A stretch of 26,460 bases of DNA. Source: Gemmatimonadota bacterium. GTDB taxonomy: Bacteria; Gemmatimonadota; Gemmatimonadetes; Longimicrobiales; RSA9. The position numbers and the translations under genes were made by a program. Numbering within the stretch: position 1 is the stretch's first letter; each line of letters opens with the position of its first letter. Below the pieces are notes generated by a model, which had not been told where the DNA came from, searched no databases, and saw only the letters and a program-made list of their open reading frames with translations. This document shows, piece by piece, positions 19,183 through 26,158 of the stretch. Location of the stretch: NCBI GenBank assembly GCA_040905425.1, contig JBBDRO010000070.1, positions 1 to 26,460 of the forward strand. Direction: 5' to 3'.

Positions 19183-20844
19183 CTACATCCGCTCATACAC
19201 CACCCGGCCGCCCACCACCGTAAGGTCCACGCGCGCGTCCGGGATGCGGTCCGGAGCCACCTCCAGGATGTTGCCGGAGAGCACCACCAGGTCGGCCAGC
19301 TTGCCGCGCTCCAGCGTGCCCAGCTCCGCTTCCATGAACGCGCCGTACGCGTTGGCGGCGGTGTAGGCGCGCAGCGCCTCCGCCACGGTGATCTTCTGCT
19401 CCGGGACCCAGCCGTCGGGATTGGCGCCGTCGATGGTGGCGCGCGTCACGGCGGCGTGGATGCCGAGCAGCGGATCCATGGGCGCCACCGTCCAGTCACT
19501 GCCGAACATGAGGCCGGCGCCCGCGTCCAGCAGGGAGCGGAAGGCGTAGGTGCCCTGCACGCGCTCGGGGCCGATGCGGTTGCCCGCCCAGCGGCCGTCG
19601 TCCACCGCGTGGTAGGGCTGCATGGAGGGCAGGACGCCCAGCTCCGCGAAGCGCGCGATGGCGGCCGGCGTGAGGTGCTGCGCATGCTCGATGCGGAAGC
19701 GACGGTCGCGCGCCCCGTTCCGCGCGGCCACATCGGCGTAGGTCTCCAGCAGCCAATCGTTCGCGCGGTCGCCGATGGCGTGCACGACCACCTGCAGCCC
19801 GGCGGCGTCCGCGGCCGCGATCTGCCGGGCCAGCTCGGTGGTGTCACTCACCGTGAAGCCGCGTGTGGAGGGGTCGTCAGTGTAGGGTTCGTAGAACCAG
19901 GCGGTGGTGGAGCCCAGCGACCCGTCCACGAAGCCCTTGAGGCCGCCCCAGCGCAGCATGGCGTCCCCCCTGCCGCTGGCCTCCACCTCGGCACGCAGCC
20001 GCTCCCAGGTGGCCAGCGGCACGTAGGAGGCCACGCGCATGCGCAGCTCACCCGCCTCCCGGGCGCGCCGGTACGTGGCCAGGTCGGCCCAGCCGCCCAT
20101 GTCCTGCACCAGCGTCACACCCACCGAGAGCGCGTGCTCCTGCGCCCGCGCGAAGGCGGCGTCCCGCTCCGCCTCAGACGGCTCGGGCATGTGCGGGTAG
20201 ACCAGGCCCATGGCCTCATCCTTGAGCACGCCGGCGGGCGCCCCCGCGGCGTCCCGTACGATGAGCCCGCCCGCCGGGTCGGGCGTCCCCGCGGTGACGC
20301 CCGCCAGCTCCAGCGCCCGCGTGTTGGCCAGCGCCATGTGGCCGTCCAGGCGATTCACGAAGACCGGGTTGTCGGGTGTGAGCGAGTCGATCCACGCGCG
20401 CTGCGGCAGCGGCGAGCCCTCCCACAGCTCGTGGTCCCAGTCCCCGCCGGTGAGCCACTGGCCCGGCTCCAATCCCGCCACGAAGGCGCCGATGCGGCGC
20501 GCGAATTCCTCCGGCGTGGCGGCGTCCCGCAGGTCCACGCTGGCAAGCTGGAAGCCGCCGCTCATGAAGTGCGCGTGGTCGTCGATGAAGCCTGGCGTGA
20601 CCAGCCGCCCGCCGAGTTCCACGACCCGGGTGTCAGGGCCCATGTAGCGGGCCACGTCGGCCGCGGAGCCCACCATCACGATGCGGCCGTCGGAGACGGC
20701 CAGCGCTTCGGCGGGCGCAGCCAGCGGCACGCCGGTCCAGACCACGCCGCCGGTAAGCACCAGGTCGGCGGCCTCGGGACCGGAGTCGGCGCAGGCCGCG
20801 AACGGGAGGGTGGTGAGCAGAAGGAGGAGAAGGCGTCGTCGCAT
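19183..20844 (-). CDS. YtcJ-like amidohydrolase (Amidohydro_3), predicted lipoprotein
   Basis: PGFIDDHAH, DGH, K.FVDGSLG, HAIGD, RIEHAQ, GSDW, GKLADLVVL; lipobox FAAC. Confidence 0.93.
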   Translation of the reverse strand: MRRRLLLLLLTTLPFAACADSGPEAADLVLTGGVVWTGVPLAAPAEALAVSDGRIVMVGSAADVARYMGPDTRVVELGGRLVTPGFIDDHAHFMSGGFQLASVDLRDAATPEEFARRIGAFVAGLEPGQWLTGGDWDHELWEGSPLPQRAWIDSLTPDNPVFVNRLDGHMALANTRALELAGVTAGTPDPAGGLIVRDAAGAPAGVLKDEAMGLVYPHMPEPSEAERDAAFARAQEHALSVGVTLVQDMGGWADLATYRRAREAGELRMRVASYVPLATWERLRAEVEASGRGDAMLRWGGLKGFVDGSLGSTTAWFYEPYTDDPSTRGFTVSDTTELARQIAAADAAGLQVVVHAIGDRANDWLLETYADVAARNGARDRRFRIEHAQHLTPAAIARFAELGVLPSMQPYHAVDDGRWAGNRIGPERVQGTYAFRSLLDAGAGLMFGSDWTVAPMDPLLGIHAAVTRATIDGANPDGWVPEQKITVAEALRAYTAANAYGAFMEAELGTLERGKLADLVVLSGNILEVAPDRIPDARVDLTVVGGRVVYERM

Positions 20845-20923
20845 GGTGCCTCTGAAGTGAAGGACGTAATGGGGAGGATAGCGCCCGCGCCCGGCGGCCG
20901 GCCAGCGCAGCGCAACATGACCC

Positions 20924-20952
20924 TTGCGCTAAACAGTTAACCCATGTAATGT
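20924..20952 (+). promoter_or_regulatory. Sigma70-like promoter
   Basis: TTGCGC(20924-29)-17bp-TAATGT(20947-52) in a strikingly AT-rich patch; predicted TSS about 20958-20960. Confidence 0.6.
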
Positions 20953-20958
20953 AATTAC

Positions 20959-21344
20959 TGGATCAAGGAAAAGGATCCGGTCGGCCACCCTGACGCGCCG
21001 ACTGCCTCGTTCCCGGTCCGCCTCCACGGTGCTACGGCCCGACGCCGGGGCCTGGTGGAGGCCGCCAGTGGTGCCGCTCTCGCGGGCGGGTCCAATAGGG
21101 GATGCCGGCCGGATCCGACCACTACGGCGCTCCGCGTATGCCGACGGGTGGCTGCGGAGTTGCCTGGCCCCCGTCGCGCCACGTGCCGCCGCGGCCGGCG
21201 GGTGGTCACGGGCGCCGTCGGGCCCCGAGCCCGGCGGTGGCCCACCCGCTTCACCGGCGTCCGGGAGCATCCGGCCCGCGCGGCCTCTCACGCGGGTCCG
21301 GGGCATGCTTCCGGGCGCTGGGCCGCGCTCCCGAAATCGGGAGG
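20959..21344 (+). ncRNA. Unassigned highly structured RNA (long leader or ncRNA), about 390 nt
   Basis: Stems read by eye: 20973-85/21104-16; 21020-27/21055-62; 21126-36/21153-64; 21198-205/21242-49; 21215-23/21229-37; 21254-70/21305-21 (17 bp); 21328-33/21338-43. The non-Watson-Crick pairs are G-U on the + strand. Confidence 0.6.
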
Positions 21345-21353
21345 ATGGGTGTC

Positions 21354-21431
21354 ATGGCATTCGTGCTCTTCATCGTGATCTGCTTCCTGATGTGCGGCGG
21401 GGAATGGCTGTGGAAGCACCGCCCGCATTGA
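21354..21431 (+). CDS. 25-aa single-TM small protein MAFVLFIVICFLMCGGEWLWKHRPH
   Basis: GGGAGG SD at 21339-44, 9 nt before ATG; high GC3 codons; hydrophobic helix plus Trp/basic tail. Confidence 0.65.
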   Translation: MAFVLFIVICFLMCGGEWLWKHRPH

Positions 21432-21482
21432 GCCCCGTTCCAGCGCCTGACCAGCCCAGCGGCAGCACCAGCACCAAAGACC

Positions 21483-21520
21483 GCGCCCCGGCGCCCGTCC
21501 GAAGACCGGCGCCGGGGCGC
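21483..21520 (-). terminator. Intrinsic-terminator-like hairpin between convergent genes
   Basis: 13-bp perfect stem GCGCCCCGGCGCC/GGCGCCGGGGCGC; cUUCGg loop and GGTCTTT tail on the minus strand; may act in both directions. Confidence 0.75.
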
Positions 21521-21542
21521 GTTGCGTGTGCGGCTCAGCGGC

Positions 21543-24380
21543 TCAGCGCTGATCCATCCACACGTCCTCGATCACCGCCACCGAGCGGGACTGCTCCTGC
21601 CCGTTGACGCTCAGCGTGACCACGTAGCTGCCGGCGTCCACCTCGGGACCGCGCTGCGGTCCACGGCGTCCCGACTGCTCCTCCTCCTCCTCCGGATCCT
21701 CGCGCAGGTCCCACTGCACGCGGTTCAGCCCGGTGGTGGTCTGCACCTCGATGGTGCGGATCACATCGGGGCTGCCCGCCTCCCGGATGGTGAGCGTGGC
21801 CTGCCCGCGCGGAGCCGACCCCAGATAGAAGCTCAGGAACGCGCCATCGGGCGCGCCGCGGCCGACCCAGCCCTTGTTGCCCGTCACGGGCCGGCTGTAG
21901 CGCGGGTCCGACCGCCACAGCACCGCTTCGCGCGGCTGGAAGAGATGCACGTCACTGGCGAGCACCGCGGGCGTCATCTGCTGCAGTGACGTGATGTCAT
22001 CCATGATCTGGACGCTGTAGGAGTGTGTGGCCAGCACCAGATCATTGTCCCGCGGATGGACCAGCACGTCATCCACGCGCCCGGTGGCCAGGCCGGGCAT
22101 GAACTGCTCCCAGCTCTGCCCCTGGTTCAGCGAGACGAAGAAGCCGTTCTCCGTGCCCAGGTAGAGCAGGTTGGGATTGCGCGCGTCCTGGCGCACGGTG
22201 TTCACGTTGCCGAAGGCGGGCAGGTTGGAGGTGATGTTGGTCCAGCTCTGCCCGTAGTCGTGCGTCACGTAGACGTAGGGCCGCATGTCATTGTCCAGCG
22301 CCCCATCGAGCGATGCGAACGCCACCGCGGGATCGAAGTGGGACGCCTCCACGCGCGACACGTAGTACTCCATGGTGCCGCCGGGCATGTTCTGGCCCAC
22401 CTCGGTGAAGGTCTCACCGCCGTTGCGGCTCACCTGGATGTTGCCGTCGTCGGTGCCCACCCAGAGGAGGCCCGGGATGACGGCCGACTCGGACACGCTG
22501 ACGCTGGTGCCCCAGACGTTCACCCCGTCGTTGCGGGACAGGATGCACGGCTGGCCCGGCGGGGTGCGCCCGCACCGGCCCAGGTCGTAGGGCGTGCCCA
22601 TGATGTCGAGCGCGCGGATGTCCACGCCCTTCGTCAGCTCCGGGCTCATGCGGTACGTCTCACCCCGGTCGTGGGAGGTGAACAGGTGGTTGCCGCCCAC
22701 GTGGATGGTGCGCGGGTCGTGGGGCGAGAGCATGAACGGCGTGCTCCAGTTCCACTGGATGCGCGTGTTCGCGGACGGCGTCGGCACGATGTTGCCAAGG
22801 TTCTCACCGTTGTTGCTCGGTGTGCGCGGCCGGATGCTGCCGCCGCCGTCACCGTCCAGATGGATGCGGCGCACGTTGCCGTTCTGGGACTCGGAGTAAA
22901 TGATGGTGTAGTCGGTGGGGTCCACGGCCGTGTAGAAGCCGTCGCCGCCGCCCACGCGGTACCAGTCCTGGGGCAGGATGCCGCCGCTCCGCACGGAGCT
23001 GGGGCCGCACCAGCTGCCGTTGTCCTGCAGCCCGGTGCACACGTAGTAGGGCCGGCGCATGTCCACCGAGGCGTGGTAGGGCTGGCCCACCGACCAGCCG
23101 CGCAGGGACTCCCACGCCTCACCACCGTCATAGGTGACGTCCACCGAGCCGTCGTTGCCGTACATGACGTGGTCCCCATCGGTCGGATCCACCCAGATGG
23201 CGTGGTGGTCCACGTGGCCCAGGCCGCGCATGGTCTGGAAGGTCCGGCCGCCGTCGGTGGACTTGTAGGCCTGCACGCCGCCGGTGTAGACGATCTCCGG
23301 GTTCTGCGTGTGCACGCGGAGCTGGCTGAAGTACATGGGCCGCACGTTGTGGTTGCTGCGGAACTCCCAGTTCTGCCCGCCGTCCGTCGAGCGCCAGACG
23401 CCGTCGGCGTTGGGATCCGTCACGTCCTGGCCCGCATCTTCCGCCTCCTCGCGCCGCTCCCGCTCAGCCTCCCACTCGGCCTCCGTCATGGGGGGCGAGC
23501 GGTCCGCCGCTACCTCGATCTGCGCATAGATCACATTGGGGTTGGAGAGGGACCAGTCCAGGGCAACGCGCCCCATGGTGCCACCCGGCAGCCCGTTGCC
23601 GGACAGGCGGGTCCAGTGCTCTCCGCCGTCCGTGGAGCGCCAGATGCCGCTGCCCGGTCCACCGCCCACGAAGCAGCACGACGTGCGCCGCCGCTGGTAG
23701 GTGGCCGCGTAGAGGTTGTTCGGATTCGACGGGTCGATGATCAGCTCCGTGGCGCCCGTGTTCTCATCCACGTAGAGCGTCCTGTCCCACGTGCGGCCGC
23801 CATTGCTGCTCTTGTAGACGCCACGTTCCGGCGAGGGACCGAAGAGCGCGCCGTTGGCCGCCACCCAGACCACGTCCGGGTTGGTGGGATGCACGCGGAT
23901 GCGGGCAATGGTCTGCGTACCCTCGAGCCCCATGTGCTGGAAGCTCTCGCCGCCGTCGGTGGTCTTGTAAACGCCGTAGCCGTAGGAGGAGCTCTGCCGG
24001 TTGTTGGCCTCACCGGTGCCCACGTACACCACGTTCGGATTGGACGGCGCGATAGCCATGTCCCCGATGGAGGCCGTCTCGTATTCGCCGAAGACGTTCT
24101 CGAACGTGATGCCATTGTTGCTGGTCTTCCACACCCCCGCGGTGGAGAAGCCCACGTAGTAGGTGTAGGGGTCGGCCGGGTTCACTTCGATGTCGTCGAC
24201 CCGGCCGCCCTGCTGGATCGGGCCGATCTCCCGCCATTGGAAACCCTGCAGCAGCGGGCTGGTGGGTGCGTTGATCACCTGGTTCTGACCACCCTGGGCC
24301 AGAGCGGGGGCGGGCACGGCCAGGAGGAGCGCCATTAGCGCAGCGCCGAGCTTGAAGCGCTGCTTACCGAGCAGGCTCAT
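21543..24380 (-). CDS. Secreted VPS10/sortilin-like BNR (Asp-box) repeat protein (GH74-like fold)
   Basis: ATG 24380 with AAGGAGA RBS, signal peptide ending ALA-Q, WREIGP...GR, repeated S/T-x-D/N-GG-x-x-W/F, GGDGF, GTDDG; 945 aa. Confidence 0.92.
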   Translation of the reverse strand: MSLLGKQRFKLGAALMALLLAVPAPALAQGGQNQVINAPTSPLLQGFQWREIGPIQQGGRVDDIEVNPADPYTYYVGFSTAGVWKTSNNGITFENVFGEYETASIGDMAIAPSNPNVVYVGTGEANNRQSSSYGYGVYKTTDGGESFQHMGLEGTQTIARIRVHPTNPDVVWVAANGALFGPSPERGVYKSSNGGRTWDRTLYVDENTGATELIIDPSNPNNLYAATYQRRRTSCCFVGGGPGSGIWRSTDGGEHWTRLSGNGLPGGTMGRVALDWSLSNPNVIYAQIEVAADRSPPMTEAEWEAERERREEAEDAGQDVTDPNADGVWRSTDGGQNWEFRSNHNVRPMYFSQLRVHTQNPEIVYTGGVQAYKSTDGGRTFQTMRGLGHVDHHAIWVDPTDGDHVMYGNDGSVDVTYDGGEAWESLRGWSVGQPYHASVDMRRPYYVCTGLQDNGSWCGPSSVRSGGILPQDWYRVGGGDGFYTAVDPTDYTIIYSESQNGNVRRIHLDGDGGGSIRPRTPSNNGENLGNIVPTPSANTRIQWNWSTPFMLSPHDPRTIHVGGNHLFTSHDRGETYRMSPELTKGVDIRALDIMGTPYDLGRCGRTPPGQPCILSRNDGVNVWGTSVSVSESAVIPGLLWVGTDDGNIQVSRNGGETFTEVGQNMPGGTMEYYVSRVEASHFDPAVAFASLDGALDNDMRPYVYVTHDYGQSWTNITSNLPAFGNVNTVRQDARNPNLLYLGTENGFFVSLNQGQSWEQFMPGLATGRVDDVLVHPRDNDLVLATHSYSVQIMDDITSLQQMTPAVLASDVHLFQPREAVLWRSDPRYSRPVTGNKGWVGRGAPDGAFLSFYLGSAPRGQATLTIREAGSPDVIRTIEVQTTTGLNRVQWDLREDPEEEEEQSGRRGPQRGPEVDAGSYVVTLSVNGQEQSRSVAVIEDVWMDQR

Positions 24381-24437
24381 GAGGGTCTCCTTGTGACGGG
24401 AACTGCGGGGCCGGTTCATTCCGGCGCCGGTATGGAA

Positions 24438-24490
24438 ATCTGTATACATAGATATTCTGCCAATCTTCCCCGCCCCTGCGCCCCGGTCAA
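24438..24490 (-). promoter_or_regulatory. Promoter with downstream palindromic operator (GntR/FadR-like)
   Basis: TTGACC(24490-85)-17bp-AAGATT(24467-62); TGTATACA palindrome at 24441-48 within ATCTGTATACATAGAT. Confidence 0.55.
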
Positions 24491-24625
24491 GAAAAACCGG
24501 AGGAAGCGCGATGGATCGGGCCCATGAAAGGGGCGCGGCACGAGCGCCCGGGCACGATGGGCGGGGCCACGGTAAGCGCGCCGAACGCGGCCGCGCGACC
24601 GCGTGCACCGCGGCCGCACCCGGTC

Positions 24626-26062
24626 CTAGGACGCGCCCGTAAGCACCTCCAGCATGCGGTTGATCGCCCCCGTGTTGCCCACCCACCGCGCCACGATGAC
24701 CAGGTCGCGCGTGGGATCCACGTAGATGACGTTGTTGCCGGCGCCCAGGTGATAGAACGCCTCGGGCGGACCGGCGCTGAAGCGCGGCCGCTCGCCGCCG
24801 TTCAGGAAGAAATTCATAAAGCCGTAGGTGGCGTTGGCGGGCCCGGGCGTGCGCGCCATGGCCAGCCACGCCTCCGAGAGCAGCCGCTGGCCGTCCCACA
24901 TGCCGTTGCGCGCCGTGAGCAGGCCGAAGCGCGCCATGTCCCGCGCGCTGATAAACATGCCGCCGCCCCAGTGGGAGCCACCGCTCACCGATTGCATGAG
25001 TTGTCCGTCGATGACCACCCAGGAGTTGTCGTAGCCGGTCCAGCGCCAGGTGGGGCTGGCGCCTATGGGGTCCATGAGGTGCTCGCGCAGCACCTGGGGC
25101 AGCGGCCGCCGCCACACGTTCAAGGCCGCCAGCGCCACCAGGTTTACGCGCGTGTCATTGTACTCGAAGCGGGTGCCGGGCTCGCGCCGCTCGCGCGCGC
25201 GGTCCGCCTCCAGGTCGCGCGCCGGCCGGTCCGCCCAGTCCGGCTTGCCCCAGAGCGTGCCCTGCCAGTCGCTGGTCTGGCGCAGCAGGTCGTCCCAGCG
25301 GATGCGGGCGTTGTGCTCCGAGCTGAACGGTTCCAGCACCTCGAAAGCGTCGTAAGCCGCGCCCTCCATCGGCGTGCGAACGCTGTCCTCCGGACCCACG
25401 CCCATCCACGATGCCGGCACCGTGACCCCCGCCACGGGCGCGCCGCCCCCCGGCCCGCCTGGCGCCCCCTTGAGCGCCACCACGGGCGCCATGTACGGCG
25501 CCACGGGGTCCATCACCTCCCGGATCAGCCCGCGGTCGTACGCCAGCCCCACCGTGCTCGAGAGGAAGCTCTTGGCCACGCTGAAGGTCTGGTCCACCCG
25601 GTCGGGCTCCCCCCACTCGGCAACGATGTAGCCGTCCTTGATGATGAGCCCGCTGGCCGGCCCCCGGTCCTTGAAGGGGCCGATGGCCTCGCCGAAGGGC
25701 TCGCGCCCGAAGGAGCGCATGTGCTGCTCCAGCAGATCACGCGGGGCGTTCGACTCGGCTGCTATGGCCAGCGCCACCGCCGAATCGACAGCCGCCTGCG
25801 TGAAGCCCACCTGCGCCGGCGCGCGCGCTTCCCAGGCGCTGCGGGGCGGGTAATAGGCGCCCTGAGCGGCCAGCGGGGTGGCGGCGGCGCCCGCGGCTGC
25901 GGCAAGCACCGTGGTCAGGACGGCGGCCCGGAAGGCGGTCCGGAAGGGGGTCCGGATGGCGGTCAGGACGGCGGTCAGGACGGCGGTCAGGACGGCGGTC
26001 CGGACGGCGGTCGCCATGGCGGTCAGCGCCGGAGCGGGTGTCCTTCGGGTGGCGTTCAGCAT
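24626..26062 (-). CDS. Secreted serine hydrolase, beta-lactamase (AmpC-like) family
   Basis: SVAK (SxxK), LL.QTS, FEYND, ISARDMARFG, HLGAG; ATG 26062 with GGAG upstream; signal ends LAA-Q. Confidence 0.88.
   Translation of the reverse strand: MLNATRRTPAPALTAMATAVRTAVLTAVLTAVLTAIRTPFRTAFRAAVLTTVLAAAAGAAATPLAAQGAYYPPRSAWEARAPAQVGFTQAAVDSAVALAIAAESNAPRDLLEQHMRSFGREPFGEAIGPFKDRGPASGLIIKDGYIVAEWGEPDRVDQTFSVAKSFLSSTVGLAYDRGLIREVMDPVAPYMAPVVALKGAPGGPGGGAPVAGVTVPASWMGVGPEDSVRTPMEGAAYDAFEVLEPFSSEHNARIRWDDLLRQTSDWQGTLWGKPDWADRPARDLEADRARERREPGTRFEYNDTRVNLVALAALNVWRRPLPQVLREHLMDPIGASPTWRWTGYDNSWVVIDGQLMQSVSGGSHWGGGMFISARDMARFGLLTARNGMWDGQRLLSEAWLAMARTPGPANATYGFMNFFLNGGERPRFSAGPPEAFYHLGAGNNVIYVDPTRDLVIVARWVGNTGAINRMLEVLTGAS
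25910..26029. repeat. 12-bp tandem repeat, about 10 units, inside the signal-peptide region
   Basis: GGCGGTCAGGAC three times exactly (25958-25993) with variant flanking units; encodes TAVL/TAVR-type tetrapeptides. Confidence 0.9.
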
Positions 26063-26158
26063 ACGCACGGGCGGTCTCCGCGTGGGCCGGGTGCTGGTTC
26101 GGGAGGGGGCGGGCAAATGAACGTGATCGGGGCGTTGGGGCAAGTGGGTGGGGGTGGG

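Follow-up and report, generated by a model that had tools for sequence, protein, structure and literature searches.

Between two minus-strand genes on contig JBBDRO010000070.1 of a Gemmatimonadota bacterium (assembly GCA_040905425.1) lies a gap of 698 nucleotides (nt; 20845-21542), and the question raised by this locus is what the gap encodes and on which strand. A preliminary description of the 26,460-nt stretch analysed here (hereafter the window) had proposed that the gap hides a plus-strand transcription unit, in which a promoter and a long structured leader precede a small membrane peptide whose Shine-Dalgarno sequence (SD) is locked in a hairpin, and had likened this layout to a type I toxin or a novel riboregulator. 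The sequence features so described are all present at their places on the plus strand, and a plus-strand unit beyond chance is borne out by a conserved peptide, a constrained leader, and the strand-specific fold of that leader. We favour, with moderate confidence, the reading that the window encodes a small membrane protein that is accessory to an NrfD-type module and the translation of which would be gated by a lineage-specific structured 5′ untranslated region (UTR).

The peptide gene and its family

The peptide gene comprises 25 codons (21354-21431, plus strand; MAFVLFIVICFLMCGGEWLWKHRPH), with the stop codon TGA at 21429-21431. Residues 1-16 are almost all hydrophobic and are followed by a tail of Trp and basic residues. 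Another in-frame ATG at 21345 abuts the SD, and its use as a start is unsupported by the family alignment. The guanine-plus-cytosine fraction (GC) of this open reading frame (ORF) by codon position is 0.52/0.36/0.88, which resembles the flanking genes, where the third position reaches 0.92-0.93 and the second is near 0.5. A metagenome contig (L172) carries a syntenic orthologue of the locus, 92% identical over 3.6 kb. Its ORF differs from that of the window by three synonymous codon changes and a single replacement (L12A, in a variable column), and the last 43 nt are invariant.

The preliminary description had tied its proposal to conservation of the peptide. The 73 genomes of the same bacterial family were searched first with the peptide as the query and next with a profile, which led to a set of 17 sequences, from 13 of these genomes and the metagenome contig. 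Matches inside long frames (G013, G003, G004 contig 15) were dropped; a divergent copy seen by eye upstream of a hybAB gene (see below) on contig 32 of G072 was added, as was L172 from the metagenome. The family consensus, MGYVLFIVIAF.MLG.ERL, is extended by a basic tail that is often rich in His. Pairwise differences within the family number 953, 638, and 1186 at codon positions 1, 2, and 3, respectively, so that the third position varies most and the second least. Each genome has one or two copies of the gene, and the window peptide is the shortest of the family (25 residues vs 31-38). Since the window ORF has a coding GC signature, belongs to a family of 17 relatives with third-position-biased change, and differs from L172 mostly by synonymous change, we consider it highly probable that this peptide gene is real.

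Among 401 genomes sampled over the class, no convincing member was found outside the bacterial family; the remaining matches (E 0.002-0.009) lie in frames of 81-353 residues. Across the 17 members, Pfam gave nothing below E 0.028 and no family common to two members, the three peptides scanned against NCBIfam matched 0 families, and the ESM Atlas returned a best score of 0.80 to unnamed clusters, with no lead. A scan with a degenerate DNA pattern was too unspecific; 80 loci were screened of at least 119 stretches, and L124 was the only true member among those screened. In a Candidatus Binataceae metagenome-assembled genome, a 25-residue ORF (MAYVLFMLVLVYFYICWWEWRHKDD; L066:1501-1578) resembles the window peptide; its surroundings are unrelated, it has no SD, and the likeness is probably fortuitous. 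As far as these comparisons indicate, the peptide family seems to be confined to one bacterial family and vertically held, apparently within the Longimicrobiales.

The gene context points to a partner. In 11 of the 17 loci, the peptide gene opens a two-gene operon, lying 50-150 nt upstream of a gene for a HybA-HybB fusion protein of ~695 residues with a twin-arginine translocation (Tat) signal (hereafter hybAB), and the peptide is present at 11 of the 13 fused hybAB loci for which upstream DNA is available. On contig 27 of G009 (L184, upstream of 1501), the place of the peptide before hybAB is taken by another membrane ORF, of ~77 residues (MKRMVEAGLCWG…); in G024 (L183), there is no small membrane ORF upstream of hybAB. 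The genome of the window has such an operon on contig 15, where a promoter-like element, a ~165-nt leader, and a paralogous 36-residue peptide (G000:C15:45667-45747(-)) are followed by hybAB, which encodes a 696-residue Tat-signal fusion (L037 7499-9589(-)). The N-terminal half of this fusion matches the NCBIfam model of HybA (NF008134, 279.6 bits; cut-off 263) and the C-terminal half that of HybB (NF008133, 455.6 bits; cut-off 450), and Pfam assigns Fer4_11 and NrfD, i.e., a 4Fe-4S ferredoxin and an NrfD-type quinone-interacting membrane domain. Since this genome (96.7% complete) yielded no [NiFe] hydrogenase large subunit, the HybA-HybB fusion is taken as a stand-alone iron-sulphur (FeS)/quinone module and not as part of a hydrogenase. 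In two genomes, the fusion has a C-terminal CxxCH haem-c extension (L177:1501-4620 in G072 and L181:4-2529(-) in G088), the sequence of which suggests a quinone-to-cytochrome c electron-transfer module.

The six stand-alone loci are those of the window, L172, G047, and G048, the second copy of G073, which follows hybAB, and the second locus of G072. The second peptide gene of G073 (L052:1501-1602; contig 12, ~19289-19390) lies ~150 nt downstream of hybAB and has an AT-rich promoter-like block of its own, a short leader, and a clear terminator (stem + TTTTGT). Since this copy has its own signals, stand-alone copies seem to arise repeatedly. The neighbours of the window copy encode an amidohydrolase, a Sortilin/BNR-like protein, and a methyladenine glycosylase, all unrelated to hybAB, and from its sequence and setting we regard the window copy as an orphan paralogue.

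Other genes recur around the operons of the relatives. The contig 15 locus also holds a MarR-like gene, on the strand opposite to hybAB, and MarR-like regulator genes lie near the peptide operons at L039 (1159-1770(-)) and L040; at L039, a plus-strand ORF ends at ~2270-2440 beside this gene. A conserved ORF of ~55 residues (ALYELxVLPxxExGALVGxYAVxDDLxxAxxRTExxDxxRSA), which is assigned to no family, is found upstream of the operon at L035, L047, L049, L183, and other loci. Both the MarR-like gene and the ~55-residue ORF are absent from the window locus.

Promoter-like element, leader, and SD hairpin

The promoter-like element (20924-20952, plus strand) consists of TTGCGC at 20924-20929, a 17-nt spacer, and TAATGT at 20947-20952, and lies within the only AT-rich patch of the region (GC 0.55). 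The sigma70-like promoter of the preliminary description holds in part: the element is present and its placement is kept, but a generic sigma-70 scan of 20700-21700 called no promoter on either strand. The pattern TTGnnn-N16-17-TAnnn occurs upstream of the peptide gene in 12 of the 17 family loci, always facing the peptide. Its distance from the ATG is -192 to -207 in 10 relatives, compared with -430 for the window and L172. Between these two orthologues, 35 of the 39 bases of the promoter block are identical, and both hexamers are unchanged. The strongest argument for reading the block as the promoter of the plus-strand unit, alone or with an operator, is this common placement, and the difference in distance makes the window leader ~230 nt longer than usual. 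From the position of the hexamers, transcription would start at ~20959.

The leader (20959-21337, plus strand) is GC-rich and extends for ~380 nt before the SD, or ~395 nt to the ATG. Its minimum free energy (MFE) fold has four to five domains and includes 14 G-U pairs among 139, in keeping with the four folded domains with plus-strand G-U pairs described previously. The fold consists of a multibranch domain closed by GGATCCGGTCGGC (20973-20985) and GCCGGCCGGATCC (21105-21117), a hairpin at ~21126-21164, and two long hairpins at ~21190-21250 and ~21255-21327. Folding no better than that of shuffled controls had been named as a result that would speak against the unit. Compared with 100 dinucleotide shuffles per strand, the plus strand of 20960-21330 folds at -231.3 kcal/mol vs -211.1 ± 6.4 kcal/mol (z -3.16, 0 of 100 shuffles as good) and the minus strand at -209.6 kcal/mol (z -1.17, 12 of 100 as good). 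When the ORF and the terminal hairpin are added, z becomes -3.28 on the plus strand and -1.73 on the minus strand.

A coding function of the leader was considered and rejected. The GC by codon phase is flat (0.73/0.79/0.77), with no periodicity, and the five overlapping ORFs have no Pfam match; in L172, the frames of the long overlapping ORFs are disrupted by two indels, an insertion after 21091 and a deletion at 21122. The generic scan of 20700-21700 called no internal terminator-like site within the leader. The segment 21104-21114 (GCCGGCCGGAT) can pair either with the 5′ element at 20973-20985 or with 21269-21279 (ATCCGGCCCGC) in the last long hairpin, which would allow an alternative fold, although such complementarity is common in DNA this GC-rich.

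Comparison with L172 shows that the leader is under constraint. The leader is identical at 352 of 379 positions (92.9%), and the corresponding values are 93.8% for the amidohydrolase coding sequence, 90.1% for the Sortilin/BNR-like coding sequence, 88 of 94 positions for the SD plus ORF, and 90 of 112 columns (~80%, including a 6-nt deletion) for the 3′ stretch 21432-21542. In the two flanking genes, 61 of 496 and 72 of 479 third codon positions differ. The divergence thus amounts to 7% in the leader and 1.6% in its core, vs 12-15% at the third positions of the flanking genes and ~20% in the 3′ UTR. The most constrained core (21139-21323, plus strand), which corresponds to the two long hairpins, has three differences in 185 nt, where ~15 would be expected at the alignment-wide divergence of ~8% (Poisson P ~3e-4, uncorrected for the choice of the stretch). 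Within it, the 96 nt of 21228-21323 are the longest identical run in the whole 3.6-kb alignment, and the core equals the best-conserved coding stretches in its conservation. Of the three changes in the core, two (21226-21227) fall in the apical loop of a predicted hairpin. The 28 leader substitutions are distributed over 11 unpaired positions, nine positions where the pair is kept (all by G-U wobble), and eight where it is broken.

Apart from L172, the comparisons made with the leader yielded no relative. BLAST with the DNA of the gap in 41 related genomes gave only short GC-rich matches of at most ~70 nt, and the likeness in blastn between the window leader and the paralogous leaders is confined to the coding part. 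A covariance model built on 21186-21327 (R2) hit one of the 73 family genomes, that of the window itself. The DNA runs covering the stretch come from near-identical strains and show two single-base differences (20890 and 21024). Rfam 15 gave 0 matches at gathering score across the whole window and, for 20800-21600 with E up to 10, none on the plus strand; a scan of the window for transfer RNA and transfer-messenger RNA found none. The window leader resembles the riboswitches and cis-regulatory leaders of Rfam 15 in being long, conserved, and structured, with a sequestered SD, and differs from them in that no family reaches an E of 1 on the plus strand and that it occurs in two close lineages only. 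On the sequences compared, it appears to be lineage-specific and limited to these two lineages.

The leader ends in the SD hairpin (21328-21343, plus strand; CTCCCG-AAAT-CGGGAG, -10.8 kcal/mol). The SD, GGGAGG (21339-21344, plus strand), lies in the 3′ arm of this hairpin, 9 nt before the ATG, and its bases 21339-21343 are unpaired with a probability of at most 0.04 in the full transcript; the SD is thus buried as had been described. Since the mean unpaired probability of the leader is 0.28, this pairing is not exceptional within such a GC-rich RNA.

Downstream of the ORF, a short and poorly conserved 3′ UTR (21432-21482, plus strand) leads to the strong hairpin noted previously, a GC-rich hairpin of 13 bp at ~21483-21520. 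Its stem is the same in L172 except for the first base, and both of its flanks vary. The hairpin has no T-run on the plus strand, and the generic scan called no terminator there; a weak T-run (TCTTTGGT) follows it on the minus strand only. The sole loose Rfam match is also on the minus strand of this hairpin, to the terminator stem of a Streptomyces small RNA, and is sub-threshold (17 bits vs a gathering score of 52). We consider that the hairpin is probably a terminator shared with the convergent Sortilin/BNR-like gene (21543-25115, minus strand), which stops at 21543. The longest ORF of this gene (1190 residues) has a Pro/Arg-rich start and overlaps the next gene (24626-26143, beta-lactamase family); its true start is probably near the signal-peptide-like MSLLGKQRFKLGAALMALLLAVPAPALA. 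On the other side of the gap lies the amidohydrolase gene (19183-20844, minus strand; Pfam Amidohydro_3, E 5e-109).

Pseudoknotted leaders of related loci

At 11 loci from five genera, a different conserved leader of ~150 nt with two crossing helices is located just before the SD of the peptide gene. This motif is on the plus strand at L028, L041, L043, L042, L045, and L046 (1341-1506 each) and at L047:487-652, and on the minus strand at L027:1603-1768, L044:1588-1753, and L048:1585-1750; the remaining locus is L177, where the motif lies upstream of 1282. Helix P1 (CCGGTCCGGCA / TGCCGGACCGG) has 9-13 uninterrupted pairs, and the crossing helix P2 (GGCCTCTCCGGGCC / GGTCCGGAGAGGCC) has 11-16 pairs and ends a few bases before the SD; both are present in 11 of 11 sequences. 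A local hairpin that competes with P2 has only 4-8 pairs. Reading the alignment by hand, we found some covariation in P2, namely an exchange of T-A for C-G and a change of G-T to G-C that also breaks the local hairpin, and the outer pairs of P1 covary in G073a and the second G072 locus. A further block, conserved behind the ORF in the g5 genomes (…CCGAACGGCAGGGCC), may be another partner of the CCTGCCGG element. The motif is absent from Rfam, which gave no match at the gathering score or at a loose threshold on seven loci of relatives. We regard the motif as a well-supported RNA and propose it as a candidate new cis-regulatory element.

Whether the window leader belongs to this motif was judged with a covariance model (R1), which scores 117.5 bits on a member locus. 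R1 matched neither the window nor L172 nor L035, the paralogue in the genome of the window; with the filters off, its best value in the window was 0.7 bits (E 0.78). Examination by eye and a pairing check detected only a P1-like pairing, and membership was rejected. The two leaders are alike in their place, with a promoter of the same kind before them and the same peptide after them, and the window leader opens with a similar element (ATCCGGTCGGCCA vs ATCCGGTCCGGCA), the partner of which lies ~110-120 nt downstream. However, P2 is absent from the window, the leader of which is longer by the ~230 nt noted above.

Proposed function and alternative explanations

We propose that the locus is an unannotated monocistronic gene of the plus strand, which would be transcribed from the conserved promoter as an RNA of ~560 nt with predicted ends at ~20959 and at the hairpin at ~21520. 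The first ~395 nt would form a non-coding, highly paired leader, and the only reading frame would be that of the single-helix peptide of 25 residues. According to the positive-inside rule, the peptide would insert into the membrane as a single helix and leave its basic tail on the cytoplasmic side. There it may serve as an accessory or modulating subunit of the HybAB-like protein, the gene of which is on contig 15; the predicted association is tentative for the orphan copy of the window, and we regard the link with HybAB as somewhat doubtful in its case. The leader would limit and condition the synthesis of the peptide, chiefly because the SD is sequestered in a hairpin of a large folded 5′ UTR, and such gating would set translation and perhaps the stability of the messenger RNA (mRNA).

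By analogy, the accessory-subunit role would parallel those of CydX, CcoQ, and KdpF. The small membrane accessory subunits of respiratory and transport complexes treated in the available text of PMC12648545 include CydX and CioY of cytochrome bd, CcoQ of the cbb3 oxidase, KdpF of KdpABC, PetN of the b6f complex, and AcrZ. The peptide family resembles such subunits in that its members are single hydrophobic helices (25-38 residues), poorly annotated and without a Pfam family, and in its operon linkage with membrane complex genes, here with the HybA-HybB fusion at 11 of 17 loci. It differs from them in having no sequence similarity by Pfam or NCBIfam, and its partner is an NrfD-type FeS module, for which the accessible portion of an NrfD review (PMC8076601) mentions no such small subunit. 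Moreover, the window copy is unlinked to the complex, since its partner gene is on contig 15, and has the leader of ~395 nt. Literature searches joining Longimicrobi- with riboswitch or RNA motif, and Gemmatimonad- with type I toxin or small membrane protein, gave no such report among the matches listed, and nothing relevant was found on Longimicrobium, small protein, and NrfD.

Several observations weigh against a gated accessory subunit. The promoter is weak by consensus, agreeing at ~6 of 12 positions by our own count with a consensus that is that of E. coli. The constraint on the leader is read from one pairwise comparison, that with L172. Among the 17 substitutions at predicted paired positions in this comparison, no double compensatory change was found, and since eight of them break a pair and none is compensated, the detailed fold of the leader is not validated. 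The lowest conservation within the leader is that of the SD hairpin, which has four changes in L172, where one pair becomes a wobble, another is broken, and the SD is weakened to GGGTGG. As for the partner, the window copy has no adjacent hybAB, so that any action on HybAB would take place in trans, and 6 of the 17 loci are stand-alone, so that the peptide may have a function of its own.

Type I toxin mRNAs such as hok, tisB, zorO, aapA, and timP combine a long structured UTR, a sequestered SD, and a small transmembrane peptide. Read in this way, the window would encode a depolarising peptide whose mRNA is kept inert by the leader and the locked SD, with an unseen antisense RNA as the antitoxin. 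The likeness lies in the layout, in which a long folded 5′ UTR with the SD in a hairpin precedes a small hydrophobic peptide that ends in an aromatic/basic tail. The six stand-alone loci with their own promoter-like element and terminator would also fit a toxin module, as would the lack of linkage between the window copy and hybAB. However, no antitoxin RNA candidate was found, although a weak or trans-encoded antitoxin may exist; the generic scan called no promoter-like site on the minus strand of 20700-21700, the minus strand of the leader folds like the shuffles, and the 3′ UTR, where the cis antitoxin of type I systems often lies, is the least conserved segment (~80% with indels). The family occurs in a single bacterial family, is vertically inherited at one or two copies per genome, and in 11 of 17 loci is part of an operon with the respiratory-type gene hybAB behind a shared promoter, unlike addiction or stress modules. 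No toxin family was matched in Pfam or NCBIfam, and type I systems have, according to one abstract (PMC12390103), been reported so far only in Proteobacteria, Firmicutes, and Tenericutes. The toxin reading of the preliminary description is thus not upheld, and we consider it highly unlikely. Its alternative, a small protein under riboswitch control, may still hold: the leader is under constraint, though without an Rfam match. The leader itself could instead be the main product, as a lineage-specific riboregulator that senses a ligand or protein, or as a processed small RNA, with the peptide as the secondary part of a dual-function transcript. Its strand-specific fold, better than that of the shuffles, and its core, which holds the longest identical run and is conserved like the best coding stretches, agree with this idea, as do the alternative pairings of 21104-21114. 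A length of ~395 nt is out of proportion for 25 codons, compared with ~160-170 nt in the relatives and ~50-80 nt in stand-alone copies, and since the relatives have a different, pseudoknotted leader in the same place, leader-based control seems to be a habit of the family. Yet the peptide is clearly under selection at the protein level, the leader has no Rfam match and no homologue by BLAST or covariance model in the 72 other genomes of the family, and no internal terminator-like site was called in it, and an RNA product as the main role is unlikely in our estimate.

The lack of relatives of the leader elsewhere would also be expected if the locus were a decaying duplicate, i.e., a recent, functionless copy of the promoter-peptide cassette of a hybAB locus in which the leader is filler DNA. 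The usual partner gene is indeed missing, and the peptide is the shortest of its family. In a decaying copy, however, the whole unit would hardly be kept in an orthologue of 92% identity with its frame intact and mostly synonymous change, nor would the leader be more conserved than the third codon positions of its neighbours; the local drift is visible in the 3′ UTR, at ~80% identity with indels. We see only a very slight chance of such decay. Slimmer still is the probability that the structure serves the minus strand, as the 5′ UTR of the amidohydrolase gene or a read-through spacer, or as the 3′ UTR of the Sortilin/BNR-like gene, with the plus-strand ORF as an incidental frame. Both flanking genes are on the minus strand, the T-rich tail of the hairpin 21483-21520 is on this strand, and the AT-rich block 20920-20975 could also hold the promoter of the amidohydrolase gene. 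On the other hand, the minus strand folds no better than the shuffles by the z values given above, and the 14 G-U pairs of the plus-strand fold become A-C mismatches in it; the promoter-like block faces the peptide in 12 of 17 loci, and the peptide is conserved as a protein. The gated accessory subunit remains the reading that we favour.

In a bolder form of this reading, the leader would belong to a new class of RNA sensors for a ligand, a metal, the redox state, or a protein and would switch a peptide that tunes the NrfD module; alternatively, the orphan copy would have been recruited as the first type I-like toxin known in Gemmatimonadota. We consider this bolder form unlikely in either version. 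If the former is true, the window leader and the unrelated pseudoknotted leader of the relatives would together point to a small-protein gene family whose RNA sensors were swapped during evolution.

The window also indicates that a layout of a long folded leader, a locked SD, and a small hydrophobic ORF is insufficient to call a type I toxin. The gene was missed by gene callers and founds an undescribed small-protein family, and if its peptide is a subunit or modulator, it would add a component to the poorly understood quinone-linked electron-transfer proteins of Gemmatimonadota. To our knowledge, there is almost no RNA biology for this phylum, in which the two unrelated conserved leaders, that of the window lineage and the pseudoknotted one of its relatives, are candidate new cis-regulatory RNAs.

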